A stretch of 64,000 nt of DNA from an uncultured Actinomycetes bacterium (lineage in GTDB: Bacteria; Actinomycetota; UBA4738; HRBIN12). The position numbers were made by a program, and so were the translations under genes. Shown one piece after another: positions 3,738 to 39,725 of this stretch; position 1 is the first letter of the stretch, and the number at the start of each line of letters is the position of its first letter. The DNA is taken from positions 211,320-275,319 of the forward strand of contig CAVTIC010000006.1 in the NCBI GenBank assembly GCA_963734685.1. Direction: 5' to 3'. Under the pieces are notes generated by a model. The model ran no database searches, had not been told where the DNA came from, and saw only the letters and a program-made list of their open reading frames with translations.

Positions 3738-3861
3738 GGTCCCGCGCCCCCCGAGTAATCCGTATTACGCCGAGGGAATAGTCGTCCGGGCGGCGTCGTT
3801 CTTGCACCTGCAAGGCCGGTGCGGTCACGTTGCCGCACCCCGACCCTACGGAGACGATGAG

Positions 3862-20507: not shown

Positions 20508-20906
20508 TTGAGCGAGTTGGACGGCGTCTTCTACAAGGAGATCGTGGAGCAGGGGCTCCGCGAGTTCCCGAACGAGTGCTGCGGTGTGATCGCGGCCGCC
20601 GAGGGCGAGCCTGTGAAGGTCTTCCCGATGCGGAACGCCGACGCGAGCCCGGTGACCTACCGTCTCGACGGCAAGGAGCAGATCCGCGTCTTCGGAGAGA
20701 TCGACGATCGGGGTTGGGAGCTCTGGGCGATCTACCACTCGCACACCCATTCCGAGGCGTATCCGAGCGAGACCGACATCCGGCTCGCGTTCTACCCCGA
20801 GGCGCGGTACATCCTGGTGTCACTCGCCGACCGCGACGAACCGGTGATCCGCTCGTTCTTCATCACCGACGGCGAAGTCACCGACGAGGAGCTGACGATC
20901 ACGTGA
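20508..20906 (+). CDS. mec: Mec+ JAMM/MPN+ metalloprotease (CysO-processing hydrolase)
   Basis: JAMM motif HSHTHSEAYPSETD and E-x-CG (NECCGVIAA). TTG start with GGGAG upstream is a guess; the ORF track starts at 20445. Confidence 0.75.
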   Translation: MSELDGVFYKEIVEQGLREFPNECCGVIAAAEGEPVKVFPMRNADASPVTYRLDGKEQIRVFGEIDDRGWELWAIYHSHTHSEAYPSETDIRLAFYPEARYILVSLADRDEPVIRSFFITDGEVTDEELTIT

Positions 20907-21777: not shown

Positions 21778-22062
21778 ATGGCCGTGACCGTGAAGCTTCC
21801 GACGATCCTGCGCAAGCACGCCGGGGGAGAGGCGAAGGTCGGCGCGGACGGCGCGACGCTCCGCGACGTGCTCACCGACCTCGAGGGCCACTACCCGGGC
21901 ATCACGAAGAACGTGATCTCCGACGACGGCGGCCTGCACCGCTTCATCAACGTCTACGTGAACGACGAGGACGTTCGCTACCTCGGCTCGCTCGAAACGG
22001 AAGTCGTCGACGGCGACACCGTGAGCATCTTGCCGGCGGTCGCCGGCGGCTGCGGCTGCTGA
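21778..22062 (+). CDS. cysO: CysO/ThiS/MoaD-family sulfur carrier with C-terminal ...AVAGG-CGC extension
   Basis: MAVTVKLPTILRKHAGG...FINVYVNDEDVRYLGSLETEVVDGDTVSILPAVAGGCGC* parallels M. tuberculosis CysO (which ends ...AVAGG) plus three extra residues. CAGGAGA RBS. Confidence 0.8.
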   Translation: MAVTVKLPTILRKHAGGEAKVGADGATLRDVLTDLEGHYPGITKNVISDDGGLHRFINVYVNDEDVRYLGSLETEVVDGDTVSILPAVAGGCGC

Positions 22063-23492: not shown

Positions 23493-24847
23493 TCGTCGAG
23501 CAGCGGGAGCCTCACCTCGAACCGTGCGCCGCCCGTCGGTGCATCGGAGACCGTGACCGTGCCCCGATGCGCATGCACGATCTCGAGCACGATCGCCAGT
23601 CCGAGTCCGGTGCCGCCGGAGTCGCGGTCGCGTGCTTCGTCCAACCGCTCGAACCGCTCGAAGATGCGCTTGCGGTCCCGGGCGGGGATGCCGGCCCCGT
23701 CGTCATCGATCGTGAGGATCACGTCGCCCTCGACCGATTGCAGGGAGACCGTGACCGTCGTCTGGGCGTGCCGGCTGGCGTTGTCCAGGAGGTTGCGCAC
23801 GAGGCGGTCGAGGTGCGCCTCGTCGCCGAGGACCCGTCCCGCCGAGACACCCCTCGTGTCGACTCGCACGTGCGTGTTGGCTGCGCGCAGTCGTGATGCC
23901 TCGGCGAGCACGATGTCGTCGAGGTCGACCTGGGACCGACGGAGCGCCAGCGTGCCCTCGTCTATCCGCGTGAGCAGGAGCAGATCCTCGACCATGCGCT
24001 GCAGGCGCAGGTCTTCGGCGAGCACGACCTCGGCGAGCTCCTGTCCGTCGGTCTGCTCTGGGTGGGCGAGGGCGACCTCGGCATGTTGGCGGATCGCCGC
24101 GATCGGGGACCTGATCTCGTGCGACGCGTCGGAGACGAGACGCCGCTGTCGATCCCGCCCCTCCTCGAGGCGATCGAGCATCGTGTTCATCGTCGTGGCC
24201 AGGTGCGCGATCTCGTCGTCGGCAGGGGGAACCGGCACACGCCGATCGAGGTGATCGCCGGAGATCGTCTGCACCTCGCTGCGGATCGCCTCGACCGGAG
24301 CGAGCGCCCTGCCGACCACGATCCACGTGACCACCGCGACCACCAGCAACAGCATCGGGATGCCGAACGCGATCGGACCGATCACCGCGCTGGTCGTGTC
24401 GGCCACGGGTTCGAGCGTCCGTCCGACCAGGACGGTCTGCTGCCCTTCCGGCAGAGGGACCGCGACCGCGACCACCATGAAAGGTCCGTCCTCGAACGGC
24501 AGACCCTCGATGCGCGTATTCCGGTTGGCCTGAAGATCGACGGCCGGAGCGCTGCCCTTCATGTTCGCCGTTGAGGCGACGACCCGACCGGTCGGATCGA
24601 TGACCTGGACGAACTCCTCGTCCGCGTCGCCCGACTCGATCACGTCAGAGGACTCATCGTCCATGATCGTGTCGGCGATGGTCTCGGCCGTGAGTTGGGC
24701 TGCGTCCCGGATGTTATCGGTGAGCGAACGGCGAAGCTGCCAGACCATGCCGGCGCTCGCGATGACCAGGGCCGCGCCTACCACGAGCACGGCAGCGACG
24801 GTGGTGCGGACGCGGACCCCCGCCATCAACTGACGCAGTCGCATCAT
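23483..24847 (-). CDS. Two-component sensor histidine kinase (TM-periplasmic loop-TM-HAMP-HisKA-HATPase_c)
   Basis: H-box LVSDASHEIRSPIAAI, N/G boxes (DRLVRNLLDNASRHA, DDGAGIP, GGTGLGLAIV). Start MMRLRQL at 24847 with GGAG RBS, 13 nt after the response-regulator stop. Confidence 0.9.
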   Translation of the reverse strand: MMRLRQLMAGVRVRTTVAAVLVVGAALVIASAGMVWQLRRSLTDNIRDAAQLTAETIADTIMDDESSDVIESGDADEEFVQVIDPTGRVVASTANMKGSAPAVDLQANRNTRIEGLPFEDGPFMVVAVAVPLPEGQQTVLVGRTLEPVADTTSAVIGPIAFGIPMLLLVVAVVTWIVVGRALAPVEAIRSEVQTISGDHLDRRVPVPPADDEIAHLATTMNTMLDRLEEGRDRQRRLVSDASHEIRSPIAAIRQHAEVALAHPEQTDGQELAEVVLAEDLRLQRMVEDLLLLTRIDEGTLALRRSQVDLDDIVLAEASRLRAANTHVRVDTRGVSAGRVLGDEAHLDRLVRNLLDNASRHAQTTVTVSLQSVEGDVILTIDDDGAGIPARDRKRIFERFERLDEARDRDSGGTGLGLAIVLEIVHAHRGTVTVSDAPTGGARFEVRLPLLDDQG

Positions 24848-24860
24848 CGGCCTGCTCCGG

Positions 24861-25535
24861 TCACTCGTCGTCGGCCAGACGATAGCCTGCCCCACGCACC
24901 GTCTGCAGGGTATCTCGACCGAACGGGCGATCGATCTTGTTCCGAAGGTGACCCACGTACACCTCGACGATGTTGACGTCGCCTTCGAAGTCGTAGTCCC
25001 AGACGTGGGAGAGGATCTCGGACTTCGAGATCACGGCGCCTGGGTGCCGCATCAGGTACTCGAGGATCGAAGCCTCCCTGGCCGTGAGCTCGATCTCGTC
25101 GTCCCCACGAGATGTCCGACGGCCCCCCGGGTCGAACCGCAGATCCCCCACCTCCAGGATCGCGGGACGGGCCGGCGCCCCTCGTCGGATCAACGCGCGC
25201 AGGTGCGCCAGCAGCACCACGTAGGAGAACGGCTTCGTGAGGTAGTCGTCGGCGCCGATATCGAGCGCCTCCGCCTGATCGCGCTCGCCTTCCTTCGCGG
25301 TCAGCATGAGGATCGGCGTCCAGATCTCCTCTTCCCGGAGGGCCGCGCACACCTCGAAGCCGTTCAGGCCCGGAAGCATGATGTCGAGCACGATCGCATC
25401 GTACGGCTGCTCGCGAGCCATCCAGAGACCGTCGGTCCCCGTCAGGGCGACGTCGGTCGCGAAGCCCTCGGCCTCGAGCCCGCGCTTGAGGCCGGCGGCC
25501 AGCCGTTGCTCGTCTTCGACCACGAGGAGTCGCAT
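24861..25535 (-). CDS. OmpR/PhoB-family response regulator
   Basis: Receiver MRLLVVEDE...DAIVLDIMLPG...LMLTAK, and winged-helix tail VRGAGYRL. Confidence 0.9.
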   Translation of the reverse strand: MRLLVVEDEQRLAAGLKRGLEAEGFATDVALTGTDGLWMAREQPYDAIVLDIMLPGLNGFEVCAALREEEIWTPILMLTAKEGERDQAEALDIGADDYLTKPFSYVVLLAHLRALIRRGAPARPAILEVGDLRFDPGGRRTSRGDDEIELTAREASILEYLMRHPGAVISKSEILSHVWDYDFEGDVNIVEVYVGHLRNKIDRPFGRDTLQTVRGAGYRLADDE

Positions 25536-25571: not shown

Positions 25572-25919
25572 AACGATGTGGCAGGCTGCACCTCAACAAG
25601 GGGTCTCGGGCGCACCCGCGACTCCTGGTGGTGTACGGCTAAGGAGCTTTCTCTCCAAATAGGCCGAATGATGTACGTCTAGGGGTTGCGCAAACGTCAC
25701 ACCTGGGCGTACGGTCCGCCCATGCGCGCATCCGCCATCCAGGGGGGGCCGAATGACCGAGTGGGTTCGCACCTCGGCGTAGGGCTCCTGCCCTCCCTCA
25801 ATCGTGGCTTCCTCCCGAACGACATGCGCCGTCTCGTCCGACACGCCCGCAGCAGGTTGGAGCCCGTCTCGCCAATGCCCAGGGGTCCCCCTGGACCGAC
25901 TCGTGGAGGTCGCAGAACC

Positions 25920-28900
25920 ATGATGCGGTGGATCATCGGATCGAGCATCAAGTTCCGTCGCTTGGTGATCGCTGTCGCCGTCGGGTGCCTCGTCTACGGC
26001 GTCCTGCAGCTCGACAACGCCCGGACGGACATCCTGCCGGAGTTCCAGCGGCCGACCGTCGAGGTGCAGACCGAGGCTCTCGGGCTCTCCGCGGAGGAGG
26101 TCGAGGAGCTGATCACGGTGCCCCTCGAGCAGGACCTGCTCGTGGGGATCGCGTTCCTCGACGAGATCGAGTCGGTCTCGCTGCCCGGGCTCTCGTCGGT
26201 GGTCATGACGTTCGAGCCGGGAACGGACGTGCTCGACGCGCGCCAGGTCGTCGCCGAGCGCCTGACCCAGGCGGTCGCGGCCGCCGGGCTGCCGCAGGTC
26301 GCGAAGCCGCCACAGATGATCCAGCCGCTCTCCTCCACCAGCCGCGTCGCGATGGTGAAGCTGTCCTCCGACGAGCTGACGCCGATCGAGATGTCGCATC
26401 CTGTCCCGCTGGGTGATCACTCCGCGCCTGCTCGGCGTCGAGGGCGTCGCCAACGTCTCGACCTGGGGATTCCGTGACCGGCAGCTCCAGGTGCTGGTCG
26501 ACCCGCAGCGGCTCAACGACGCGGGCGTCACGCTCAACCAGGTGATCCAGACCACCGGGAACGCGCTCGAGGTGTCCCCGCTCACGTTCCTCGAGGCCTC
26601 CTCGCCCGGCACCGGCGGCTTCATCGACACGTTGAACCAGCGGCTCCACATCTTCCACGAGCAGGCGATCTCGACGCCCGCAGAGCTCGGCCCAGGTGCC
26701 GATCGAGGATCCGCAGGGCGACGCGGCGACGTCCGGTGGTTCGGCGCCAACGCTGGGCGACGTCACCGACGTCGTCGAGGATCATCAGCCGCTGATCGGC
26801 GACGCGCTCTGCACCGGCGGCGACTGCCTGCTGCTCGTGGTCGAGAAGTTCCCGGACGCCAACACGCCGGAGGTGGCCGACGGGATCGACGCGGCGCTCG
26901 ACGAGCTCGCGCCCGGACTCCCCGGGCTGGCAGATGGACACCTCGATCTACCGCCCGGCCGAGTTCATCGACACGTCCTTCGACAACCTCGGGCGCGCGG
27001 CCCTGATCGGCTGCGATCCTGCTGATCCTCGTGCTGGGAGCGTTCGCCTTCGAGTGGCGCAGCGCCCTGGTCGGCACGGTGGCGATCGCGATGTCGCTCG
27101 CCGCCGCCTGGCTGGTCCTCTACTTCACGGACACCACCGTGAACACGATGATCCTGGCGGGCCTGGTCATGGCGCTCGTCGCGCTGATCGACGACGCGGT
27201 CATCGACGTCGGCAACGTGGCTGCAGCGCGTCCGACAGCATCGCTGCGCAGGGTGACGGTACCCCCGCCTGGCAGGTCGTGATCGAGGCGACGCTCGAGA
27301 TGCGCAGCGCGATCCTGTTCGCGACGCTGATCGTCGGGCGGTCCTCCTGCCCGCGTTCTTCATGGAGGGGGAGGCGGGCGCTTTCCTGCCGGCGATCGCT
27401 ACCGCGTACCTGCTGGCGATCGTGGCTTCGATCGTGGTCGCCGTGACCGTCACGCCCGCGCTCGGCATGATGCTCCTGGGCAACACGACCCGAGAGCGTC
27501 GCGAGTCGCCGGTGGCGCGCTGGCTGCGTCGGCGCTACGACGGGCTCGGCCTCGCGGATCGTGCCCAAGCCCGGCCCGGCGTTCGCCGTCTTCGGCCTCT
27601 TCGCCGTCGCCGGCCTGCGTGGCGTTGCCGTTCCTCGACCAGTCGATGCGCCCCGTCCTCAAGGAGCGCGACGTGGTGGTGAAGCTGGATGCCCCGCCCG
27701 GCACGTCGCTCCAGCGCATGGACGAGATCACGGCGCAGGCCGTCGAGGAGCTGCGATCGCTGCCCGGGGTCGACGACGTGGGCGCGCACGTCGGCCGCGC
27801 CGTGCAGTCGGACCAGATCGTCAACGTGAACTCCGCCGAGGTGTGGGTCAGCATCGACCCCTCCGCCGACTACGACGACACGATCGCCGCGATCGAGTCG
27901 GTCGGCCGGCGGGCTCCCCGACGTCTCGAGACGACGTGCTGACCTACTCCGAGCAGCGGGTCACCGACGTCCTGGGCAGAGGGGACGACGAGATCGTCGT
28001 GCGGCTCTACGGCCAGGACCAGCAGATCCTCGAGACCAAGGCCGAGGAGGTGCGCGCAGCGATCGCGGGATCGACGGGCTCGAGAACGCTGCAGGTCGAG
28101 CTTCCGCCGACGAGCCGACGATCGAGGTGCAGCCGGACATCGCCCGCGCCGAGCAGTACGGTCTCGCGCCGGGCGACGTGCGCCGCGCCGCGACGACGCT
28201 CCTCTCGGGCCTCGTCGTCGGGAACCTGTTCGAGGAACAGAAGGTGTTCGACGTCGCGGTGTGGGGAACCGAGGAGATCCGCCAGAGCGAAACCGACGTC
28301 GAGAGCCTGCTGATCGACACGCCGGACGGGGGACTCGTGCGCCCTCGGCGACGTCGCCGACGTGCGCATCGTGCCGAACGCGGCGGCGATCCGGCACGAG
28401 TCGGTCGAGTCGTACGTCGACGTCGGCGGCCGAACGTCTCCGGCCGGGACGTCGGCGCCGTCGCGGGCGACGTCGAGCAGGCGCTCGAGCAGGTCACGTT
28501 CCCGCTCGAGCACCACGCGCAGGTCCTCGGGGGCTTCGAGGAGGACGCGGCGGCGCGCTCGCGCGTGATCGCCGTCGCGGTGGCGGCGCTGATCGTGATC
28601 TTCCTGCTGCTCCAGGCCGCGTTCGCGAGCTGGCGACTCGCGGCGCTCGCCTTCGTCGGTCCTGCCGATGGCGCTCGCCGGCGGCGTGGTGGCGGCGCTG
28701 ATCGCGGGCGGCGACATCACGCTCGGCTCCGTGGCCGGGTTCGTCGCCGTGCTCGCGCTCGCGGCCCGTAGCGTCGTCGTCCTCATCCGGCACTACCAGC
28801 AGCTGCAGCGCGAGGGCGAGGCGTTCGGCGCCGACCTCGTGATCCGAGGGACCAGGGAACGGCTCGTGCCGATCCTGACGTCCGCGCTGGGGTCGGCCGT

Positions 28901-29131
28901 CGTCTTCATCCCGTTCGCCTGAGCAGCGGTGCCGGCCGGGTTCGAGATCGTCGGGCCGATGGCCATCGTGATCCTGGGCGGACTGGTCACGACGACGCTG
29001 CTGACCTCGTCGTGGTCCCCGCGATCTACCTGCGGTTCGGCTTCGTCGCCGAACCGGACACGTCGGCCGAGGATCTGTTCGTCAAGGTTCCCGACGATCG
29101 ACACGGTCCGGAGGGTAGGTGGGACCGATGA
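25920..29131 (+). pseudogene. CusA/CzcA-like efflux RND transporter permease, copy 1, broken by at least 10 frame changes
   Basis: N-terminus MMRWIIGSSIKFRRLVIAVAVG...PEFQRPTVEVQTEALGLSAEEVEELITVPLEQ is HME-RND-like. The protein continues across track ORFs 26413, 26696, 26934, 27031, 27362, 27619, 27561, 28127, 28668 and 28929, each in a different frame. Several junctions sit at C/G homopolymers (for example gtcccgctgg ~26410, ggcccagg ~26700). The stop overlaps the next ATG. Confidence 0.8.
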
Positions 29132-29561
29132 AGCGCAGCCTCCTTGCGATCGCCGTGATCCCCGTCGCCGCCTTGATCCTGACGGCCTGCGGCGGAACGG
29201 TGTCGGACGAGTACGAGATCGAAGAGCAGCCCTACACCCTGGAGCCGATCGAGGGTGAGGACGTGCTCCGCGTCACCCTGACCGAATCGGCAGTGGAGCA
29301 CATCGGCATCGAGACGGTGCCGGTCGAGACAGCGCGGCTCGAGGTTGGTCGTGCCCTACGACGCGGTGTACATCGACTCCCACGGTGGGCTTCTGGGTCT
29401 ACACGAACCCCGAGCCGCTCGTGTACGTTCGAGCCCCGATCGACATCGTCCGCGAGACGTCGACCGAGGCGTTCCTCGCCGACGGGCCGCCCGCCGGAAC
29501 CCAGGTCGTGACGGTCGGGGCCCCGGAGCTGTACGGAACCGAGACGGAGTTCGGTACGTAG
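29128..29561 (+). pseudogene. Small efflux-associated lipoprotein (periplasmic adaptor-like), frameshifted
   Basis: MKRSLLAIAVIPVAALILTAC lipobox; the body is spread over three frames (..ARLEV / VVPYDAVYIDSHGG / WVYTNPEPLVYVRAPIDIVRETSTEAFLADGPPAGTQVVTVGAPELYGTETEFGT*). Confidence 0.5.
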
Positions 29562-29589
29562 GCGTGATCACGGAAGGAAGGAACGCGCG

Positions 29590-32500
29590 ATGCTTCGCTG
29601 GATCGTCGGGTCGAGCCTCAAGTTCCGATACCTCGTGGTCGCGCTCGCCGCCGCGCTGATGTTCTTCGGCGTGCAGCAGCTCCGCCACACCGCGGTCGAC
29701 GTCTTCCCCGAGTTCGCGCCGCCGAAGGTCGAGGTCCAGACGCCGTCCCTGGGGCTGTCCGCGAACCAGGTCGAGTCGCTGGTCACGATCCCGCTCGAGC
29801 AGACGCTCAACGGGGTCCCCGGCCTCGACGAGATCCGCTCGAAGTCGGTGGAGTCGCTGTCGTCGATCGAGATGATCTTCAAGCCCGGCACCGATCTGCT
29901 CACCGCTCGGCAGCACGTCGCGGAGCGCATCGCCCAGATCTCGCCGCAGCTCCCGACCTGGGCGAGCCCTCCCTTCATGATCCAGCCCCTGTCCGCGACG
30001 AGCCGCGTCATGAAGATCGGGCTCACGACGACCGACCCAGACTTGGACCTGATCGACCTGTCGATGACGACCTACTGGAAGATCAGGACCCGTCTGATGC
30101 GGGTGCCGGGCGTCGCGAACGTGCCGATCTGGGGCGAGCGGATCGAGATGCCCACGATCCAGATCGATCCGAAGCGGCTCCGCGAGCACAACGTCACGGT
30201 CGACGCCGTCTCGACGGCCGTGGCGGACGCCCTGGACGCGGGGCTGCTCCAGTACTCCGACGGCAACTACATCGGGCGCGGCGGCTTCATCGACACCGCC
30301 GACCAACCGCTACCAGGTCCGGCACGTCCTGCCGATCGTGGAGGCCGCGGACCTGGCCGAGATCCCGGTCGAGTCGGCCGACGGCAAGAAGCTCGAGCAT
30401 CGAGGACGTGGCGAACCTCGAGCGAGGCACCTGGCCGCTGGTGGGTGACGCCGTCATCAACGACGGCCAGGGCCTGATGCTCATCGTCGAGAAGCTGCCC
30501 TGGGCGAACACCCTGGACGTGACGCGCGGGGTCGAGGCGGCGCTGGAGGAGCTCAAGCCCGGCCTGTCCGGCATCGCGATCGACGCGACGATCTTCCGCC
30601 CGGCGACCTTCATCGAGGAGTCGATCAGCAACCTCTCCAAGGCCATCTGGTTCGGGGCGATCCTGATGGTCCTGATGCTCTGCCTGTTCCTCTACAGCTG
30701 GCGCACCGCCGTGATCAGCGTGGTGGCGATCCCGCTGTCGCTGATCGCGGCCGGTCTCGTCCTGCACTGGCGCGGGGCGACGATCAACACGATGATCCTG
30801 GCCGGCATGGTGATCGCCCTCGGCGACATCGTCGACGACGCGATCATCGACATCGAGAACGTGGTCCGACGTCTGCGGCAGCGTCGCCGGCGAGGGCGGC
30901 GGCGCGTCGACCGCCAGGATCATCCTCGACGCCTCGCTCGAGGTTCGAAGCGCGATCGTGTACGCGACGCTGATCGAGATCGTCGCCGTCGCGCCGATCT
31001 TCATGCTCGAGGGACTGTCCGGGTCGTTCTTCCGGCCGCTCGCCACGTCGTACGCGCTCGCGTTGCTCGCGTCGATGGTCGTCGCGCTGACGGTGACCCC
31101 GGCGATGAGCCTGATCTTCTTCAGGAAGCCGTCCTCCCTGCAGCACCGCGAGTCGCCGGTCGTCCCCGCCCTCCAGCGCGGGTACCACTTCGTCCTCGAG
31201 AGGATCGTCCGACGGCCTCGTCGCGCGTACGCGGCGGTCGGCCTCGCGACGGTGATGGGCGTCGCGGCCCTGCCGCTGCTCGGCCAATCGCTCCTGCCCT
31301 CCTTCAAGGAGCGCGACTTCCTGATGCACTGGCTGACGGTGCCCGGCACCGGGCCAGCCGGAGATGTTCCGGATCTCCGCTCGGGCCAACCACGAGCTGC
31401 TGGAGATCCCCGGGGTCAGGAACGCCGGGTCGCACATCGGGCAGGCGCTGCTGATGGACGAGGTCGTCGGGATCGACTTCGGCGAGAACTGGATCAGCGT
31501 CGACCCGTCCGTCGACTACGACGAGACCCTCGCGAAGATCCAGGAGGTCGTCGACGGCTACCCGGGCCTGTACCGCGACGTGCTGACCTACCTGAAGGAG
31601 CGGATCCGGGAGGTCCTGACGGGCTCGAGCGAGGCCATCACGATCCGGATCTACGGGCAGGACCTGGCTCAGCTGCAGGAGACGGCCGACGAGATCAACG
31701 AGATCGTCGGGAGCATCCCCGGCGTGACGAGGACCACGTCGAGTCCCTCAAGGACATCCCCCAGGTCAGCGTCGAGGTCGATCTCGGCGCAGCGCAGCGC
31801 TACGGGCTCAAGCCCGGCGACGTCCGCCGGGCCGCCGCCCGGCTGCTCGCAGGTGAGGAGGCCGGCGACATCTTCCGGGAGGCAAGGCCTACGACATCCA
31901 GGTCTGGAGCACGCCCGAGACCCGTGACACCTACAGCGACATCGGGAACCTGCTGATCGACACGCCCAGCGGCAAGTACGTCCACCTGAAGGACGTGGCG
32001 ACGGTGACGATCGAGCCCGTTCCCAACGTCATCTATCACGACAACCTGTTCAGGAGCCTCGACGTCGGCGCCAACATCGACGGCAGCCGGGACCTCGGCT
32101 CGATCGTGGGCGAGCTCGAGAATCGCCTCGAGACTACGACTGGCCGGCCGAGTACCACGCCGAGTTCCTCGGTGAGTACACGGAGCGGCGAGAGGCCGCG
32201 AACCGGTTGAACGTCGGCGCGATCGCGGCGGCCATCGGGATCTTCCTGCTGCTGCAGGCGTCGTTCGGCAGCTGGCGGCTCGCCACGCTCTCGTTCCTGA
32301 CCCTGCCGATCGCGCTGATCGGTGGCGTGATCGCGGCGTACCTCACCGGTGGAGTCATCTCGCTCGGATCGCTCGTCGGGTTCTTCACGGTGCTGGGGAT
32401 CGTCGCGCGGAACGGGATCATGCTGATCAGCCACTACCAGCATCTCGAGCGGTTCGAGGGCGTTCCCTTCGGCCCGGAGCTGGTCCTGCAGGGAGCCCGT

Positions 32501-32740
32501 GAGCGGGTCGTACCGATCATGATGACGGTCCTGACGACCGGGCTCGCCCTCGTGCCGCTGCTCATCGCGGGGGAGATCCCCGGCCAGGAGATCGAGTATC
32601 CGATGGCCTGGGTCATCCTCGGCGGGCTCATCACGGCGACGTTGCTGAACCTGTTCGTCGTGCCATCGTTGTACCTGCGGTTCGCGAAGAAGGGTGGCCA
32701 GGCCGGAACGCCGATGCCTGCGGCTCCGGTGCCCGCGTAA
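29590..32740 (+). pseudogene. CusA/CzcA-like efflux RND transporter permease, copy 2 (about 50% identical to copy 1 over the first 160 aa), broken by at least 6 frame changes
   Basis: [40 protein letters not shown]... through GGFIDTADQ, then continues in ORFs 30408, 30958, 31364, other unlisted frames, and 32207 (C-terminus ...[37 protein letters not shown]). Confidence 0.8.
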
Positions 32741-32750
32741 GGAGACGAAG

Positions 32751-33728
32751 GTGACGGAGGCACGCTTCCCCAGGTGGGTGCCGCGTGCGGGAGCACGGCG
32801 AGTGCCCGCGGCGATGCGCAGGTGCCTCGCTCCCCTCGTGTGCGTGGCCGTGCTCGGTGCGTGCAGCCAGGGCGGGTCGGGGTCGACGACCCCGGCCCCC
32901 TCGGGCACCGCCCAGGCGGCCCCGTCGCCGACGACGACCAGTCCGGAGCCGCACGTGGACGTCAAGGCGAGCGACTTCGACCCCGCCAACTTCGATCCCT
33001 CGACCGCCGTCGACAACCGGTGGTTCCCTCTGACCCCCGGGACCCAGTTCGTCTATCGCGGGTCGTCGCTCGAGGATGGCGAACGTCTCACGCACAAGGT
33101 GGTCTTCACGGTCAGCGACATGACCAAGGAAGTCGCCGGTGTTCGCGTGGTCGTGATCTGGGACCGCGACTACACGGAAGGCGAGCTCGTGGAAGCCGAG
33201 GTCGCGTTCTTCGCTCAGGACCGCGACGGGAACGTGTGGCACCTGGGGCAATATCCCGAGGAGTACGAGGCAGGGAAGCTCGTCAAGTCTCCCGGCTGGG
33301 TCGCGGGCGAGGAAGGCTCGAAGGCGGGCATCGCGATGAAGGCCGAGCCGAAGCTGGGCGCACCGGATTATTCTCAGGGGTACTCGCCACCACCGATCAA
33401 CTGGATCGATCGAGCGCGGACGTACGAGATAGGTGCCAAGACGTGCGTGCCGGTCGACTGCTACGAGGATGTGCTCATCACTGAGGAGTTCGAGCGATCG
33501 AAGCCGGGAGCGTTCCAGCTCAAGTACTACGCGCCGGGAGTGGGCAACGTCCGTGTCGGGTGGCGAGGTAAGAACGAGGAAGAGCGAGAGGAGCTCGTGC
33601 TGATCGAGTATCGCCGACTCGACGGAGCGCAGATGGAGATGGTCCGCGAGGCCGTGCTCGCGCTCGACCGGAACGCTTTCGAGCGGATCCCGGCCTACGC
33701 TTCGACATCGCCTGCCGAAGCCTCGTGA
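32751..33728 (+). CDS. Lipoprotein, uncharacterized family (paralog A)
   Basis: Lipobox VAVLGAC (GTG 32751 after AAGGAGA; alternative ATG 32814). Conserved blocks DNRWFPLTPGTQFVY, GNVWHLGQYPEEYEAG, GAKTCVPVDCYEDV, ALDRNA shared with paralogs at 33774 and 54119. Confidence 0.65.
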   Translation: MTEARFPRWVPRAGARRVPAAMRRCLAPLVCVAVLGACSQGGSGSTTPAPSGTAQAAPSPTTTSPEPHVDVKASDFDPANFDPSTAVDNRWFPLTPGTQFVYRGSSLEDGERLTHKVVFTVSDMTKEVAGVRVVVIWDRDYTEGELVEAEVAFFAQDRDGNVWHLGQYPEEYEAGKLVKSPGWVAGEEGSKAGIAMKAEPKLGAPDYSQGYSPPPINWIDRARTYEIGAKTCVPVDCYEDVLITEEFERSKPGAFQLKYYAPGVGNVRVGWRGKNEEEREELVLIEYRRLDGAQMEMVREAVLALDRNAFERIPAYASTSPAEAS

Positions 33729-33773
33729 GGTCCAACCTTCTGACACGCTGAAGTGTTGGGGGGTCGGACGGAG

Positions 33774-34487
33774 ATGCGGCGTGGACGGAGATGCTGGGCC
33801 CTGATGAGCTTGGTCGTGCTCGCGTCCGCATCGTGCTCCCGCCCGGAGAGCTTCGAGGATCTCATGGACATCGGCGTCTGCGATCCGGCCACCGCGGAGT
33901 TCACGCTCCAGATCGACAATCCGTTCTTCCCGTTGCCGGTTGGGCGCCAGATCGTGCTGGAGGGGTCGGAGTTCTTCTTCACCGACGTGCTCGTCCGGAT
34001 CACCGTCCTCGACGATGTGGAGACGGTGGCCGGGGTGGAGACCCGGGTCGTCGAGGAGTACGAGGCCAAGGACGGACAGGTGGTCGAGGTCTCCCGGAAC
34101 TACTTCGCACAGACTGCCGACGGCACCGTGTGCTACTTCGGGGAAGAGGTCGACATCTACGACGGCGACGGGAACGTCACATCGCACGGCGGAGCCTGGC
34201 GCGCCGACGGGACGACGAACATCCCGGGCATCTTCATGCCCTCCGATCTGGAGGTGGACCAGGCCTTCCCACAGGAGATCGCGCCGGGCGTCGCGGAGGA
34301 CCAAGCGAAGGTGATCGCCCTCGGCGAGGTCGTGGAGGTGCCCGCCGGCACGTTCGACGACACGGCCGCGCTGCTCGACCGCAACCCCCTCGACGGCAGC
34401 GAGGATGAGAAGGTCTACGCCTCCGGCGTGGGCCTGATCGTCGACGGATCCGCTCGGATGACGGGGTTCACGCCGGGTGGAGGATAG
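33774..34487 (+). CDS. Lipoprotein, same uncharacterized family (paralog B)
   Basis: Signal MRRGRRCWALMSLVVLASASC. Shares DNPFFPLPVGRQIVLEGS and GTVCYFGEEVDIYDG blocks with paralog A. Confidence 0.65.
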   Translation: MRRGRRCWALMSLVVLASASCSRPESFEDLMDIGVCDPATAEFTLQIDNPFFPLPVGRQIVLEGSEFFFTDVLVRITVLDDVETVAGVETRVVEEYEAKDGQVVEVSRNYFAQTADGTVCYFGEEVDIYDGDGNVTSHGGAWRADGTTNIPGIFMPSDLEVDQAFPQEIAPGVAEDQAKVIALGEVVEVPAGTFDDTAALLDRNPLDGSEDEKVYASGVGLIVDGSARMTGFTPGGG

Positions 34488-34533
34488 GATCGAACCGAGC
34501 GCGCGTTCTATCCGGCCACGGCGGCGAGCCTCG

Positions 34534-35490
34534 ATGAGTGACTGGGATAATCCGGGCGTGCGGTACGACGACATCCTGGAGGCGATCGGCAACACGCCGC
34601 TCGTCGGTATGCCCCGGATGTCGCCGAACCCTCGGGTGCGGCTGTGGGCGAAGCTCGAGGGCTCGAATCCGACGGGGTCCACGAAGGACCGCATCGCCTT
34701 GAGGATGATCGAGACGGCGGAAGCGAGCGGCGAGCTCACGTCGGCCAAGACGATCCTCGAGCCCACATCGGGGAACACGGGCATCGCGCTCGCCATGGTG
34801 GCGGCGCGCAAGGGGTACGGGCTCACGGTGGTCATCCCCGACAATGCGAGCGAGGAGCGCATCGGCCTGCTTCGTCTGTTCGGCGCCGAGATCGTGTTCA
34901 GCGACGGCGAGAAGGGCACGAACGGATCGATCGAGGTGGCGCGCGCGCTCGCCCAGGACGAGAAGTACTTCATGCCGTTCCAGTACGGGAACCCGGCGAA
35001 CCCGTTGGCGCACCAAGAAGGCACCGCGCAGGAGATCATCCGCGACCTGCCCGAGGTGACTCATTTCGTGGCCGGCATGGGCACCGGTGGCACGCTCACC
35101 GGCAACGGCCGCGGCCTGCATGCCCACAACCCCGACGTCAGGATCATCGCGGCCGAACCGGAGCTCGGCGACCTCGTCTACGGTCTGCGCTCACTCGACG
35201 CGGGGTTCATCCCACCGATCTTCGATCCGAGCGAGATCGATCGGAAGTTCCTCGTCGACTCGTCCAGCTCGCTGCGAACGAACCGCGAGCTCACCTCGAC
35301 CGAGGGCATCTTCGCCGGCATCTCGAGCGGCGCCGTGGTCTACGTGGCGCAGCGCATCGCGAGCGAGATCGACCACGGCGACATCGTGTGCCTGCTGCCC
35401 GACGGCGGGTGGAAGTACCTATCGACGGAGGCCTGGGCGGAGGACCTCGCGACGGCCGAGAAGGGCGTCGCGGAGTCGCTCTGGTGGTGA
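34534..35490 (+). CDS. cysM: CysO-dependent cysteine synthase CysM (O-phosphoserine sulfhydrylase, PLP-dependent)
   Basis: Near-collinear with M. tuberculosis CysM: RLWAKLEGSNPTGSTKDR, ILEPTSGNTGIALA, GNPANP, TEGIFAGISSGAVV, DGGWKYLS. Confidence 0.85.
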   Translation: MSDWDNPGVRYDDILEAIGNTPLVGMPRMSPNPRVRLWAKLEGSNPTGSTKDRIALRMIETAEASGELTSAKTILEPTSGNTGIALAMVAARKGYGLTVVIPDNASEERIGLLRLFGAEIVFSDGEKGTNGSIEVARALAQDEKYFMPFQYGNPANPLAHQEGTAQEIIRDLPEVTHFVAGMGTGGTLTGNGRGLHAHNPDVRIIAAEPELGDLVYGLRSLDAGFIPPIFDPSEIDRKFLVDSSSSLRTNRELTSTEGIFAGISSGAVVYVAQRIASEIDHGDIVCLLPDGGWKYLSTEAWAEDLATAEKGVAESLWW

Positions 35491-35553
35491 GCGCGCTGGG
35501 GTCGTGCACGTGGCGGTGAGCGCCCCGGCCTCGTGCACCGTGGTGGCGAGCAG

Positions 35554-36381
35554 ATGAGCGATCCGCGGCCGATCGGGGTCTTCGACTCCGGGGTCGGAGG
35601 CCTCACGGTCGTGCGAGCCATCATGGATCAGCTGCCGCACGAGCCCATCCTCTACGTGGGTGACACGGCTCGGTTCCCGTACGGCCCGAAGCCCGTCGAC
35701 CTGATCCGGCGTTACGCCCTGGGGATCGCCGACTACCTCGTGCACCGCGACGTGAAGATGCTCGTGGTCGCCTGCAACTCAATCGAGGTGAGCGCCATCG
35801 ATGACATCGCCACCCGTGCAGGGATCCCGGTCGTCGGCGTGATCGACCCCGGCACGCGCGCGGCGGTCCGCTCGACGCGCAACGGGATGATCGGCTTGAT
35901 CGGCACCGAGGCGACGGTGACGAGCGGTGCGTACGACCGAGCCCTGTCGGCGACGGGCGCTGCGGTGACGCTGCGATCTCAGCCCTGCCCCAGCTTCGTC
36001 GAACACGTCGAACGAGGGGACACGACGAGTCCCACGCTCAGGGCGGCCGCGCGCGGGTATCTTTCCCCGCTGATGGCCGAGGGCATCGACACGCTGATCC
36101 TGGGGTGCACCCACTACCCGCTGCTGTCGGGTCTGCTGCAGCTCGAGCTCGGGCCGGGCGTCGTGCTCGTTTCGTCGGCGGAGGAGACGGCCAAGGACGT
36201 GTATGCGACCCTGCTCGCCGACGACCTGCTCCAGGACGACGGATCGCCCGCCGGTCACGAGTTCCTCGCGACCGGTGATCCGCACGCATTCGAGCGCGTC
36301 GCCACCGTATTCCTCGGGCCCGAGCTGACCGACGTCGGCGCCGCACAGGCGCAACCGGTGGGGGGTGGCACGTGGAGCTGA
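35554..36381 (+). CDS. murI: Glutamate racemase
   Basis: IGVFDSGVGGLTV, FPYGPKP, VVACNS, LILGCTHYPLL. Confidence 0.9.
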   Translation: MSDPRPIGVFDSGVGGLTVVRAIMDQLPHEPILYVGDTARFPYGPKPVDLIRRYALGIADYLVHRDVKMLVVACNSIEVSAIDDIATRAGIPVVGVIDPGTRAAVRSTRNGMIGLIGTEATVTSGAYDRALSATGAAVTLRSQPCPSFVEHVERGDTTSPTLRAAARGYLSPLMAEGIDTLILGCTHYPLLSGLLQLELGPGVVLVSSAEETAKDVYATLLADDLLQDDGSPAGHEFLATGDPHAFERVATVFLGPELTDVGAAQAQPVGGGTWS

Positions 36382-37124
36382 CGGTGTTGGGCTCGGCCGG
36401 CACATGGCCCGGTCCAGGCGGCGCGACCTGCGGCCACCTGCTCAGCCACGACGGCACCCACGTCTGGCTCGACGCCGGCACCGGCACCTTCGCTCGGCTC
36501 CAGGAGCACATCGGCATCGACGAGATCGCGGCGATCGCGGTGACCCATGGACACACCGACCACTTCATCGACGTGCTGCCGGCGTTCTACGCCCGCCACT
36601 ACGGGGGGATGGGCGCGCCCGGCCTTCCGTTCTACTCGCCCGACGGATTCGTCGAGGGCATGAAGTTGCTCGTCTCCGAGAACGGTCGGGACGTGATGTC
36701 CGAAGCCTATGCGTTCCACACGGTGCGCGGCGGTGACGGGTTCGAGGTCGGACCCTTTCGGTTCGCGGTCTTCGACATGACCCATATCGGCGTGAACGCG
36801 GTCGGGTATCGGGTCGAGGCCGGTGGGGCGGTGCTCGCCTACACGGGCGATTCCGGCCCGTGCCAGGAGGTCGTCGAGATGGCCCTGGGAGCCGATCTGT
36901 TCGTGGCCGAAGCCACGTATCAGGACGCGTCGAACCAGGCGTTCTTCCACATGAGCGCGACTCAGGCGGCCGAGCATGCCACGGCCGCCGGCGCGAAGCG
37001 GCTCATGCTCACTCACATCCTCCCCACGCTCGACCCCGAGATCTCGCGCGATGAGGCCGCCGTGGCATTCGACGGCGTGATCGATCTCGCCCAGGACGGC
37101 ATGACGGTTGAGATCGAGCCGTGA
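36372..37124 (+). CDS. MBL-fold metallo-hydrolase (Rv1339-like cyclic-nucleotide phosphodiesterase position)
   Basis: [10 protein letters not shown] metal motif. Conserved position between murI and rph as in mycobacteria. Confidence 0.8.
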
Positions 37125-37146
37125 TGACGGTGACGGAGATCGTCCC

Positions 37147-37875
37147 GTGACGAGGCCCGACGGTCGTTCGGCCGACGAGCTGCGTCCGGTCTCCTGGGAG
37201 ATCGGGTTCCAGGAATGGGCCGCCGGCTCGGTGCTCTTCTCGATGGGCAAGACCCGTGTGCTCGTGGCCGCCAGCGTCTCGGAGGACGCGCCCCGATGGC
37301 TCAAGGGAACGGGCCGAGGCTGGGTGACCGGTGAGTACTCGATGTTGCCTGCCTCGACGTCGGAGCGTTCGAGCCGCGAGGTGAACCGGGGCCGCCCGGG
37401 TGGGCGGACGCAGGAGATCCAGCGGCTGATCGGTAGGTCACTGCGGAGCGTCACCGACCTCTCGCGTCTGGGCGAGCGCACGATCACGATCGACTGCGAC
37501 GTGCTGCAGGCCGATGCGGGCACGCGCACGGCCTCGATCACCGGTGGGTACATCGCGCTTGCGATCGCGCTGCGCGGGCTCGTCGAGCTCGGCAAGGTGC
37601 CCGAGGACCTGCTGTCCGAGAGCGTGGCGGCCGTGAGCGTCGGCATCGTGGACGGCGAAGCACGACTCGATCTGTGCTACGAGGAGGACGCGGGTGCCGA
37701 GGTCGACTTCAACGTGGTGATGACCGGTGGCGGCGCGTTCGTGGAGGTGCAGGGAACGGCCGAGGGCACGCCGTTCTCTCGTGACGACCTCGGCGTCATG
37801 CTCGACCTCGCCGCCACGGGCGTCGGACGGCTCACCGAGCTGCAGCACGAGGCACTGGGTTCGATATCGGGTTGA
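37147..37875 (+). CDS. rph: Ribonuclease PH
   Basis: [13 protein letters not shown]...[18 protein letters not shown]...[16 protein letters not shown]...[19 protein letters not shown] collinear with E. coli Rph. GTG 37147. Confidence 0.9.
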
Positions 37876-37883
37876 GATCGCCG

Positions 37884-38489
37884 ATGACCTTCCCCGATCG
37901 GCTCGCGATCGCATCCCGAAACACGCACAAGCTCCGCGAGCTCGGCCGCATCTGCGCCGGATGGCCCGTCGCTTGGATCACGGTCGACGACCACGATCCG
38001 GCGGCGTGGCCCGACGTCGAGGAGACGGGGGAGACCTACCTCGAGAACGCCATCCTGAAAGCCACCCAGGTCGCGGCCGCCCTCGGCGTACCGGCGATCG
38101 CCGACGACTCCGGCATCGAGGTCGACGCGCTCGGCGGGGCGCCGGGGCCCCGTTCCGCCCGGTACGCCGGTGAGGACGCCACCGACGAGCGGAACCTGGA
38201 GGCGCTGATGAGCGCCGTGCGAGGTGTACCGTCAGGCGGCCGCACGGCCCGCTACCGATGCGTCGCCGCGATCGCCTGGCCCGACGGACCGACCGACCAC
38301 GCCGAGGGCGTCTGCGAAGGGTCGCTCGTGTCGAAGCGGCGCGGCGTCCGCGGGTTCGGATACGACCCGATCTTCGTGCCCGCCGGATGGGACGAGACCA
38401 TGGCGCAGCTCACCGACGAGCAGAAGGACCGCATCAGCCATCGCGGGCGGGCGTTCCGGGCGCTCGCCGAGCGGCTGGGGAAGCCGTAG
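37884..38489 (+). CDS. rdgB: RdgB/HAM1 non-canonical purine NTP pyrophosphatase
   Basis: LAIASRNTHKLRE, ETGETYLENA, ADDSGIEVDALGGAPG, RGFGYDPIF. Confidence 0.85.
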   Translation: MTFPDRLAIASRNTHKLRELGRICAGWPVAWITVDDHDPAAWPDVEETGETYLENAILKATQVAAALGVPAIADDSGIEVDALGGAPGPRSARYAGEDATDERNLEALMSAVRGVPSGGRTARYRCVAAIAWPDGPTDHAEGVCEGSLVSKRRGVRGFGYDPIFVPAGWDETMAQLTDEQKDRISHRGRAFRALAERLGKP

Positions 38490-38564
38490 GCGGCTTCCAC
38501 GGCGTCTCGCGGAGCCGACGGTACCCGACTCAAGGTAGCCGCTCGGTTTGTCGAGTCATCTTCC

Positions 38565-39725
38565 GTGGAACCCACGACGACCGCTCCGCCGGTCATGGAC
38601 CGCCGCGTGCTGCGCAGCACGAAGGGCTTCTTCGACGGGAAGTCCCCGATGCTCGTGGCCGTGCTCGGTCTGGCCTTCATCGCGGTCGTGAGCGTGCTCG
38701 ACTACCTCACCGGTCCGCAGCTCTCGCTGTCGCTCCTGTACCTCATGCCGATCGGCCTCGTGACGTGGAACCTCGGCCGCCGGTGGGGTGCCGTCGCCGT
38801 GGTCATCTCTACGGTCGCCGCGCTCGTCTCCGACGTCCTCTCGTCTCCCTCCACGACGACGACCGACCCGGTGCCGTACTGGAACGGCATCGTGCGGTTC
38901 GCCGTCTTCCTGGCGGCGGCGATGCTGCTGGACACCCTGCGCTCGATCATCGACGCGCAGTGGAACCTGGTCGAGGAGGAGGCCGGACGCTCGAGCGATC
39001 TGCGTGAGATGAACGACGTGAAGAACACGCTGTTGCATGCCGTGTCGCATGACCTGAAGGGTCCTCTGGCCGGCATCCTCGGTGCGATGCAGACGATCCG
39101 GCGCGACGACGTGTTGCATCTGACGCCCGACGAGCGCGAGGCGCTCTACCAGGTGATCGAGCAGAGCGGCCGGAAGATGAACCGTCTGATCGACGACCTG
39201 CTCGACCTCGACCGCATCGACCGGGGCAAGGTCCTGCCGCAGCGCAAGCCCACCGACGTGGGGGCGTTGGCCCGCCGCGTCGTGGCGGAGAGCTCACTGT
39301 TGACCGAACATCCCGTCCGGGTACGAGCCGACGCCGTCATGGTCGAGGTCGATCCGGGCAAGGTCGAGCGGGTGGTGGAGAACCTGCTCGTGAACGCGGC
39401 GCGGCACACCCCGCCGGGCACGGCCGTGGAGGTCGACGTCACCGCCCGGCCCGGCGGTGTCGTGCTGACCGTGGAAGACGACGGCCCGGGCGTCCCCGAC
39501 GAGCTCAAGGAGGCGCTGTTCGAGCCGTTCCGCCAGGGAGAGGATTCGAGCGGGCGCGGCATGGGCATCGGCCTCTCGCTCGTCCAGCGATTCGCGGAGC
39601 TCCACGGGGGAACCGCCAGGATCGAGGACGCTCCGACCGGCGGGGCTCGGTTCGTCGTGACCCTGCCGGGCGAGGTCGTTACTCTCGACGAACCGATCGC
39701 CGAACCACAGCTCCACGCGGTCTGA
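38565..39725 (+). CDS. Sensor histidine kinase with N-terminal multi-TM (DUF4118-like) domain; no adjacent response regulator
   Basis: H-box LLHAVSHDLKGPLAGI, N/G boxes (ENLLVNAARHT, DDGPGVP, GMGIGLSLV). Confidence 0.8.
   Translation: MEPTTTAPPVMDRRVLRSTKGFFDGKSPMLVAVLGLAFIAVVSVLDYLTGPQLSLSLLYLMPIGLVTWNLGRRWGAVAVVISTVAALVSDVLSSPSTTTTDPVPYWNGIVRFAVFLAAAMLLDTLRSIIDAQWNLVEEEAGRSSDLREMNDVKNTLLHAVSHDLKGPLAGILGAMQTIRRDDVLHLTPDEREALYQVIEQSGRKMNRLIDDLLDLDRIDRGKVLPQRKPTDVGALARRVVAESSLLTEHPVRVRADAVMVEVDPGKVERVVENLLVNAARHTPPGTAVEVDVTARPGGVVLTVEDDGPGVPDELKEALFEPFRQGEDSSGRGMGIGLSLVQRFAELHGGTARIEDAPTGGARFVVTLPGEVVTLDEPIAEPQLHAV

Follow-up and report, generated by a model that had tools for sequence, protein, structure and literature searches.

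Frame breaks in a tandem RND efflux operon of an uncultured Actinomycetes bacterium are very probably consensus errors

Results

About 31 frame breaks were found in an operon of two tandem RND permease genes and an intervening lipoprotein gene. The operon lies in the window, i.e., the whole stretch of 64,000 nt that was analyzed. Judged from sequence comparison, these breaks are very probably errors of the deposited consensus, with mixed haplotypes as their likeliest source, and not mutations in the organism. Because the frame breaks would be consensus errors, the operon is to be read as three intact genes. The features of the locus are listed in Table 1.

Table 1. Features of the RND locus and of its surroundings (positions in the window)
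Feature	Position	Strand	Remarks
Sensor kinase, intact	23504-24829	-	bounds by orthology; frameshift-free control
OmpR-type response regulator, intact	24861-25535	-	frameshift-free control
RND permease 1 (RND1)	25920..29118	+	orthologs 1061 aa; readable here only by frame-hopping
Indel-dense block	26396..32132	.	~31 events, mean spacing 191 nt
Hidden compensating -1/+1 pair	28917..28940	+	makes in-frame TGA at 28920-28922
Small lipoprotein gene	29128..29561	+	orthologs 142-144 aa; signal peptide with lipobox LTAC
RND permease 2 (RND2)	29590..32740	+	orthologs 1049 aa; 7 indels
Six downstream orthologous genes, intact	34558..39722	+	PALP, glutamate racemase, metallo-beta-lactamase fold, RNase PH, Ham1, sensor kinase; controls without frameshifts

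Catalogue of frame breaks

The window and 10 orthologous loci were aligned using MAFFT. This alignment contained 29 indels private to the window, all of 1-2 nt and none a multiple of 3, compared to 0-2 in each of the other loci. Together with a hidden compensating pair (-1 at ~28919, +1 at ~28939), the total was ~31 events. These were distributed as 22 in RND1 (hidden pair counted), two single-base insertions in the small gene (29330 and 29386), and seven in RND2 (+1 at 30296, 30398, 30887, and 31354; -1 at 31729, 31881, and 32132). A previous sequence-only reading had put the number of frame changes at 18 or more, with at least 10 in the first copy, at least 6 in the second, and at least 2 in the lipoprotein gene, and all of these minimum figures held.

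The sole in-frame stop codon was explained by the hidden pair, and no nonsense substitutions were found in the operon genes. A nonsense mutation at 28920 was considered and rejected, as the -1/+1 pair fits better. Translation of 28917..28940 in the shifted frame gives F-A-L-S-S-G-A-G-G-F, which matches the orthologs (e.g., FALGGGSAGF). The ATG start and the TAG stop of RND1 are at the same positions as in its orthologs, and the start and stop codons of the operon as a whole are placed likewise. Stitched across the frame breaks, RND1 and RND2 covered positions 4-1019 and 5-1020, respectively, of the 1021 positions of the Pfam profile ACR_tran. Based on profile coverage and start/stop positions, no large deletions were present in either permease gene, in agreement with the first impression that none was obvious.

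The events were confined to the block given in Table 1, the edges of which do not coincide with those of the operon, since no indels fall within 476 nt of the start of RND1 or within 608 nt of the end of RND2. The GC3 phase flipped every 100-500 nt at 26.4-32.7 kb and ran over 1-4 kb elsewhere. A frame-switch scan of the whole window revealed 15 frameshift-like switches in the block; the five switches outside it were weak, and each of them marks a true gene boundary. The flanking orthologous genes each gave a single end-to-end tblastn HSP (13/13), and indels in the flanks were restricted to gene ends and spacers. Lon, the cyclase-STAND gene, and the MacB/FtsX permease gene were intact. The concentration of indels at this locus between unbroken neighbors, as proposed from the sequence alone, was thereby confirmed. 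An 802-aa ORF on the minus strand over the 3' end of RND2 was dismissed as a spurious high-GC ORF.

Assignment of the permeases

Both stitched proteins belonged to the RND superfamily (Pfam PF00873, ACR_tran), matching the profile over its full length and above the gathering score (RND1, 533 bits, E=1.5e-159; RND2, 674 bits, E=4.8e-202). Intact homologs of RND2 are up to 93% identical. The best NCBIfam family of the intact orthologs in contig L003 was TIGR00914 (CusA/CzcA), the cut-off of which (701.45 bits) was not reached by the orthologs of RND1 (423.5 bits) and RND2 (557.7 bits). Both permeases are referred to as CusA/CzcA-like, not as demonstrated members of that family. The locus resembles CusA/CzcA-type systems with a CusRS/CzcRS-like regulator in the full-length ACR_tran fold, the OmpR-type regulator, and the HAMP/HisKA kinase; the kinase and regulator genes (23504..25535) are transcribed divergently from the RND operon. 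It differs from these systems by its two tandem permeases, which are 44% identical, and by a 144-aa lipoprotein in place of a recognizable CusB/CusC adaptor and outer-membrane factor.

The N-termini of the two permeases, previously estimated to be about 50% identical and on that ground considered unlikely to result from repeat collapse, were 54.6% identical over 152 aa. The intact L003 orthologs were 44.5% identical over the full length. Collapse of two paralogous copies was rejected as a cause of the frame breaks because the copies are only 44% identical.

Selection and private changes

After correction of the indels, dN/dS was 0.19-0.23 for RND1 and 0.09-0.11 for RND2, compared to 0.16-0.22 and 0.08-0.13, respectively, among intact genes. 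The window carried the lowest number of private amino-acid changes, with five in RND1 (11-54 in other lineages) and none in RND2 (11-17). Neither a raised dN/dS nor an excess of private non-synonymous changes was found in these two genes, as relaxed selection on a biological pseudogene would have left behind. In the operon, the window and contig L086 had the fewest private and the most 'majority' alleles, a pattern absent in the flank. This distribution is suggestive of blending.

Signature of the indels

Insertions outnumbered deletions by 22:7 (23:8 with the hidden pair). The inserted base differed from both of its neighbors in 15 of 22 cases, and the run-length distribution of inserted bases was that of random positions. 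Junctions had been described at short C or G runs; these were no more frequent there than at random positions. The proposal of decay through slippage was not supported, given the same random-like run lengths, the 15/22 non-neighbor bases, the insertion bias, and the lack of relaxed selection. The lesions of the operon also did not show the spectrum of a natural pseudogene, i.e., slippage, deletion bias, nonsense mutations, and larger deletions or IS insertions.

Proximity of insertions to third codon positions was not significant (16/22 vs 14.7 expected), and a neighboring-allele test was adopted in place of the codon-position test. The inserted base was an allele of the orthologs at the adjacent column in 14 of 21 cases (null expectation 5.6 +/- 2.0, P~2e-4). 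A re-test with fixed inserted bases and a second alignment gave 13/21 (P~8.5e-4). Insertions adjoined a variable column in 20/22 cases (P~0.005), and six of the seven deleted columns were variable, compared to a background of 41%. The extra bases read as both alleles of a polymorphism retained in the consensus. For L086 alone, the sample was too small for the neighboring-allele test (4/8 vs 2.1 expected, P=0.13).

Motif- or methylation-specific basecalling errors were considered for the recurring contexts GC[T]GC (four times) and CTCGAG (three times). Such motifs cannot explain the localization, because 157 GCTGC and 79 CTCGAG sites occur outside the block without frameshifts.

Comparison with related assemblies

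The closest relatives of the window are MAG contigs of soil and sediment origin that were built from Nanopore reads alone with metaFlye and Medaka. Relatives were 85.6-86.5% identical to the window, L086 was 88% identical, and two further contigs were 90.8% and 87.3% identical. An intact copy from the same strain was not present in the accessible data, in which the closest relatives are 88-91% identical. The MFD MAGs were assembled from Nanopore reads only, using Flye (--meta --nano-hq, minimum coverage 8) and one round of Medaka (PMC12313526). We infer that the contig of the window was probably also obtained by long-read technology.

The sibling long-read contigs L001 and L002 come from one population, with 17 substitutions over 23.1 kb (99.93% identity), and differed by eight indels. 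Seven of these clustered within 3.2 kb of L001 and disrupt four housekeeping genes, each of which is unbroken in L002, L004, and L005; the remaining one breaks RND1 in L002 only. These indels were mostly +1, with one +2, were not in homopolymers, and were explained by alleles of relatives in 4/6 cases. L086, which is from the same ENA series, carried 13 private events in the operon (11 insertions and 2 deletions), including 11 private indels that are not multiples of 3, and many of its flanking genes were also broken. The signature in the window matches that of the errors proven between the near-identical L001 and L002, and that of L086.

Frameshifts in the operon were found only in long-read-style contigs (the window, L002, L030, and L086). 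They were absent from the related short-read contigs, all seven of which (L003, L004, L006, L007, L010, L014, and L029) were uninterrupted over the parts of the genes that they cover. A truncated RND2 ORF of 295 aa has been deposited as such on a 374,705-bp contig, which, as the MFD contigs, is present in both NCBI and ENA. Locally poor sequence quality, offered earlier as the alternative to decay, was supported by the identity of the signature with proven errors in sibling contigs, its restriction to long-read-style assemblies, and its position at polymorphic sites.

Discussion

The observations are best accommodated by reads of at least two co-occurring, closely related haplotypes that would have piled up on one contig across ~5.7 kb of a conserved operon. 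At single-nucleotide differences, the polisher may have written one allele after the other (net +1) or left the base out (net -1). The indels at polymorphic sites, with the alternative allele as the extra base, are what such a mixture would leave. The underlying genes would be intact and encode permeases of ~1061 aa (RND1) and ~1049 aa (RND2) and a lipoprotein of ~144 aa, forming a conserved efflux module beside a two-component regulator.

It is known that Flye merges close strains into one consensus (PMC8302730). The window resembles a collapsed-strain consensus in its indels at variable sites, with both alleles often kept, and in its few private and many majority alleles. It differs in that the conversion of a SNP into a +1 insertion is proposed here and is not described in the cited assembly literature, and in that no high-identity mosaic tracts were found that could have pointed to a second haplotype; in a 300-nt sliding identity analysis against the available relatives, no mosaic or recombinant tract was close to any one relative. 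Residual errors of Nanopore-only metaFlye plus Medaka assemblies are similar to those of the window, as 1-2-base indels break ORFs in this gene neighborhood only in long-read contigs. Classical Nanopore errors, however, are homopolymer deletions and insertions (PMC9262707), whereas those of the window are insertion-biased, non-homopolymer, clustered within a few kb, and at polymorphic sites. The tight restriction to one operon was counted against an artefact, as it would also be expected of a real operon loss.

A consensus error of another kind, raw-read noise in an unpolished stretch or one of very low coverage, e.g., with few bridging reads and no mixture of strains, appears rather unlikely. 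The density of ~5 indels per kb is compatible with long reads that are raw or poorly polished, error clusters of a few kb are present in sibling contigs, and the workflow takes coverage down to 8x while near-finished quality needs ~40x. Noise of this type should not favor the adjacent-column alleles of relatives (P~2e-4 and 8.5e-4) or polymorphic columns. It should also produce private substitutions, of which the window has the fewest, and residual Nanopore consensus errors are described as homopolymer indels (PMC9262707), which those of the window are not.

That the whole RND module was very recently inactivated by many small indels, i.e., that the genes are real pseudogenes, is considered improbable, and clearly more so than read noise. 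Real frameshift decay, as in host-restricted bacteria, is marked by relaxed selection, nonsense substitutions, deletion bias, and slippage at runs. The operon resembles bacterial frameshift pseudogenes in the multiple disruptions of recognizable genes, but has none of these four marks. The deposited sequence does carry the indels, which are limited to one functional unit within 58 kb of clean surroundings; efflux modules are dispensable, and the RND module is exchanged among populations. Against this stand the unchanged dN/dS and the lack of excess private substitutions, nonsense substitutions, and large deletions. About 31 neutral indels should have been accompanied by far more neutral substitutions, because substitutions dominate bacterial mutation spectra. 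Bacteria also have a well-known deletion bias, to which the insertion bias of the window is opposed, and the contexts, which are not of the slippage type, are unlike those of natural frameshift mutagenesis. There is no natural explanation for the association with polymorphic sites, and the edges of the block are inside genes, 476 and 608 nt from their ends. Finally, essential housekeeping genes are broken by indels of the identical signature in L001, whereas in L002, at 99.93% identity, they are not.

A further reading would take the indels as real scars of homeologous recombination that failed or was aborted along one tract, with a very recent death of the operon. A diverged copy of the frequently exchanged module would have been taken up, and the mismatches of the heteroduplex, which by definition lie at polymorphic sites, would have been cut, e.g., by the actinobacterial mismatch endonuclease NucS/EndoMS, and resealed with 1-nt fill-ins. 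The outcome would be a 5.7-kb cluster of +1/-1 scars at mismatch sites. This would cover both the polymorphic-site association and the absence of relaxed selection. It is scarcely credible, as breaks would have had to occur and be repaired ~31 times independently within a single tract, and as it does not account for the housekeeping genes that are broken with the same signature in only one of two assemblies of 99.93% identity.

Programmed recoding or phase variation (ribosomal frameshifting, transcriptional slippage, or SSR-mediated switching), for which nothing speaks beyond the frame changes themselves, is effectively refuted by the contexts and the intact orthologs: the ~31 sites have neither a slippery heptamer nor a homopolymer or repeat tract in common, the recurring GC[T]GC and CTCGAG are common throughout the window without frameshifts, and the orthologs are plain uninterrupted ORFs.

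If the frame breaks are consensus errors from mixed haplotypes, long-read-only MAGs can hold kb-scale, non-homopolymer, insertion-biased frameshift clusters that mimic the pseudogenization of a whole operon. Such clusters can inflate pseudogene counts, break the annotation of efflux and resistance genes, and introduce truncated fragments into protein databases, where the 295-aa RND2 fragment (P0121) already is the representative of a protein cluster. A diagnostic set that is independent of reads could flag such blocks, combining private non-3n indels relative to orthologs, run-length context, the neighboring-allele test, and unchanged dN/dS. As far as the biology of the organism is concerned, the RND operon most likely is an ordinary one with intact genes.

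Indels in the RND operon

Window 25888-32740 was aligned with ten orthologous loci. As given, none of the three genes of the operon, the tandem RND permease genes RND1 and RND2 and the small lipoprotein gene between them, was an open reading frame. The alignment contained 29 indels private to the window, none of them a multiple of three, and 0-2 private indels in each of the other ten loci. After removal of the 29 indels, the sole stop left was the TGA at 28920-28922. Over the 20 nt that follow it, the neighbouring frame reads F-A-L-S-S-G-A-G-G-F, in agreement with FALGGGSAGF and FAVMSG-AGF of orthologs. This match points to a hidden -1/+1 pair at ~28919 and ~28939 as the probable source of the TGA; a nonsense substitution at 28920 was rejected, since the neighbouring frame restores ortholog-like residues. 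The total was ~31 events (RND1 22, small gene 2, RND2 7) at a mean spacing of 191 nt. The GC content at the third codon position was ~0.9 throughout the operon (window, 69% GC), and its phase flipped every 100-500 nt, whereas in the rest of the window it held for 1-4 kb at a time.

Coordinates of genes and indels in the window (insertions by extra base; each single-base deletion directly before the coordinate)
Feature	Position	Strand	Remark
ThiS/MoaD-like carrier and JAB/Mec-type metallopeptidase neighbourhood	21778-22062 and 20508-20906		
OmpR-type response regulator	24861-25535		divergent from RND operon
RND1, RND permease	25920-29118	+	frame-hopped reading
Small lipoprotein gene	29128-29561	+	lipobox LTAC
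RND2, second RND permease	29590-32740	+	frame-hopped reading
Insertions, RND1	26396 G, 26688 C, 26932 A, 27012 T, 27222 T, 27245 T, 27542 G, 27617 G		
Further insertions, RND1	27903 C, 27930 G, 28090 T, 28341 G, 28429-30 GC, 28658 G, 29097 A, 29108 C		
Insertions, small gene	29330 C, 29386 T		
Insertions, RND2	30296 C, 30398 C, 30887 C, 31354 C		
Deletions, RND1	27337, 28070, 28106, 29005		
Deletions, RND2	31729, 31881, 32132		
Two ORFs without family match	32774-33484, 33753-34487		in ~1.8-kb RND2-PALP interval 32741-34540

The sequence-only reading had counted at least 18 frame changes, which was too low. Its statement that large deletions are lacking was confirmed: stitched RND1 and RND2 span the full length of Pfam ACR_tran (4-1019 and 5-1020 of its 1021 positions), and each of the three genes has its start and its stop codon at the same place as the orthologs. 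The two N-termini, estimated at about 50% identity, were 54.6% identical across the first 152 aa; the intact orthologs of both permeases in the short-read locus L003 were 44.5% identical over their full length.

The concentration of indels at the efflux locus was likewise confirmed. Each of 13 orthologous genes in the flanks (20.5-25.5 kb and 34.6-39.7 kb) gave one end-to-end tblastn HSP, and the window's private indels there were restricted to gene ends and spacers. The whole window was scanned for positions where the coding signal quits an ORF well ahead of its stop and resumes on the same strand in a different frame. Fifteen such switches were found inside 26.3-32.3 kb. The five detected elsewhere were weak, and each coincided with a true boundary between genes or a change of strand. 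The long genes for Lon (3619-6222), the cyclase-STAND protein (55213-58269) and a MacB/FtsX permease were intact. A uniform indel rate across operon and flanking genes was excluded because ~31 events fell in 5.7 kb and none in the ~10.4 kb of orthology-checked flanking genes (0.356^31, ~1e-14). The edges of the indel-dense block do not coincide with the operon borders: RND1 is clean over its first 476 nt and RND2 over its last 608 nt.

Mutational signature and selection

Small indels in bacterial genomes show a deletion bias. Here, insertions and deletions occurred at 23:8, the opposite of what real pseudogenes would be expected to show. The indels are not slippage events, because run lengths at the inserted base followed the distribution at random positions (68% length 1, 27% length 2, 5% length 3) and both neighbours were different from the inserted base in 15 of 22 cases. 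Junctions at short C or G runs were thus not above chance.

With indels removed, dN/dS of the window against five relatives was 0.19-0.23 for RND1 and 0.09-0.11 for RND2; among intact orthologs it was 0.16-0.22 and 0.08-0.13, respectively. At sites with agreement among six other lineages, private amino-acid changes were fewest in the window (RND1 5, RND2 0, small gene 0, versus 11-54, 11-17 and 1-6 in other lineages). Relaxed selection on RND1 and RND2 was not seen in either comparison. Had ~31 indels arisen by drift, a far larger number of neutral substitutions, nonsense changes included, would be expected; no such excess was detectable in the operon. Decay by slippage, as proposed from the sequence alone, was therefore not supported by indel context, insertion bias, dN/dS or private changes.

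Frameshifts in related assemblies

Public long-read contigs of related populations (L001, L002, L030 and L086) contain frameshift errors. L001 (ERZ25039532, contig_58059) and L002 (ERZ25039504, contig_8725, 3.0 Mb) represent the same population, with 17 substitutions in 23.1 kb and 8 internal indels between them. Seven of the eight lie within 3.2 kb of L001 (14440-17650). Glutamate racemase, a metallo-beta-lactamase-fold gene, Ham1 and a sensor kinase are split in L001 and intact in L002, L004 and L005. The L001 indels comprised six insertions (one of +2) and one deletion, mostly outside homopolymers, the signature found in the window; four of the six insertions bore alleles of relatives, and the +2 insertion (GG-A-G-C) stacked all three third-position alleles of the relatives. 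The eighth indel splits RND1 in L002 only (position 7231), and L030 likewise has a single frameshift, in RND1 (~6700). In L086 (ERZ25039576, contig_32402), 11 private indels of the operon were not multiples of three (13 private events, 11 insertions and 2 deletions), and the kinase, PALP, lactamase-fold, Ham1 and both RND genes were fragmented. Among all loci fetched, operon frameshifts occurred only in long-read-style contigs (window, L002, L030, L086); all seven short-read contigs were intact over the operon part that each covers.

The genomes nearest to the window are 'MFD...bin' MAGs, which were assembled from Nanopore reads only using Flye 2.9.2 (--meta --nano-hq, minimum read coverage 8) and one Medaka round (PMC12313526); the contig of the window was presumably produced in the same way. 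Eight proteins of the window have exact matches deposited on a single contig in NCBI and ENA, and the frameshift-truncated 295-aa RND2 ORF is among them. This fragment (P0121, ~60 residues out of frame) is the representative of a 90% protein cluster whose other members (P0122-P0125) are likewise truncated or frameshifted; assembly errors thus appear to be spreading into protein databases.

Polymorphic sites and origin of the frame breaks

Of 21 single-base insertions, 14 added an allele that relatives have at the adjacent column (random, 5.6 +/- 2.0; P ~2e-4), e.g. TC[G]C in the window and TCC or TCG in relatives. A re-test with inserted bases fixed and a second alignment gave 13/21 (P ~8.5e-4). 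A variable column adjoined 20 of 22 insertions (null mean 14.0, P ~0.005), and six of seven deleted columns were variable, versus a background of 41%. A simpler codon-position form of the test was not significant. Close strains are collapsed to one consensus by Flye (PMC8302730); at SNPs between co-assembled haplotypes, the consensus step may have kept both alleles (+1) or neither (-1). The observed pattern would be expected of such a consensus.

Private-allele densities were compared between operon and downstream flank using an identical taxon set. They were 11.5 and 22.7 per kb in the window (nearest relative in the operon, 87.9%) and 6.0 and 22.5 per kb in L086. In the operon, no other lineage had fewer private alleles or a larger majority-allele share than these two; in the flank, both were among the most divergent. 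At variable sites, the window shared the others' majority allele in 77% of cases in the operon (next best 70%) and in 61%, the lowest value, in the flank. These values are suggestive of an operon consensus blended from several populations. They could instead reflect tree position, in line with the conflict between operon and flank trees; high-identity mosaic tracts were not found in the operon against the relatives scanned.

Overall, the frame breaks are very probably a consensus artefact of long-read metagenome assembly. Locally poor sequence quality, the other option of the sequence-only reading, was supported by the shared signature in sibling long-read contigs, the intact short-read contigs and the indels at polymorphic sites. 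Mixed haplotypes across a conserved, exchanged operon are the most likely sub-type and a fairly probable one. Plain low coverage is an unlikely source: near-finished Nanopore MAGs reportedly need ~40x coverage (PMC9262707), but random read noise does not predict the excess of polymorphic sites and neighbouring alleles. Real mutation does not predict the polymorphic-site excess either, and real, very recent pseudogenes, which are also at odds with unchanged dN/dS and the fewest private amino-acid changes, are highly improbable. The probability of programmed recoding or phase variation is negligible.

The RND module and neighbouring loci

The ~1.8-kb interval between RND2 and PALP is missing from L001, L002 and L005 and present in L004, L029 and L086. 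An 802-aa ORF at 32631-35039 (-) has no family match and overlaps the RND2 end and the orthology-confirmed (+) PALP gene; high-GC DNA gives rise to long ORFs of this kind, and it is almost certainly spurious. A ThiS/MoaD-like sulfur-carrier protein, adjoined by a JAB/Mec-type metallopeptidase and a ThiF/MoeB-type adenylyltransferase, ends with ...AVAGGCGC and is two residues longer than its relatives (94 versus 92 aa). The locus resembles the CysO/Mec arrangement, and the C-terminal extension may be trimmed.

A HAMP/HisKA sensor kinase and the OmpR-type response regulator adjoin the RND operon in divergent transcription. The module of regulator and kinase, RND1 (1060-1061 aa), small protein (142-144 aa) and RND2 (1049 aa) is intact in relatives (L001, L003, L004, L005, L029 and others), and stitched RND2 has many intact homologs of 1049-1050 aa (87-93% identity) in Actinomycetota metagenome assemblies. 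Both permeases are ordinary RND permeases, nearest to the CusA/CzcA family but under its curated cut-off score. Profile search assigned the small lipoprotein to no Pfam family; its sole match (15 bits, E=0.009) was to the RND periplasmic-adaptor model, in the C-terminal part, so that a role as minimal adaptor-like partner is possible. The arrangement of two tandem permeases (44% identical), a 142-144-aa lipoprotein between them and a divergent OmpR-type regulator/kinase is conserved in many Actinomycetota MAGs. Since identity between L004 and L005 is 81.7% in the operon and 90.2% in downstream flank genes, exchange of the RND module among related populations is suggested.
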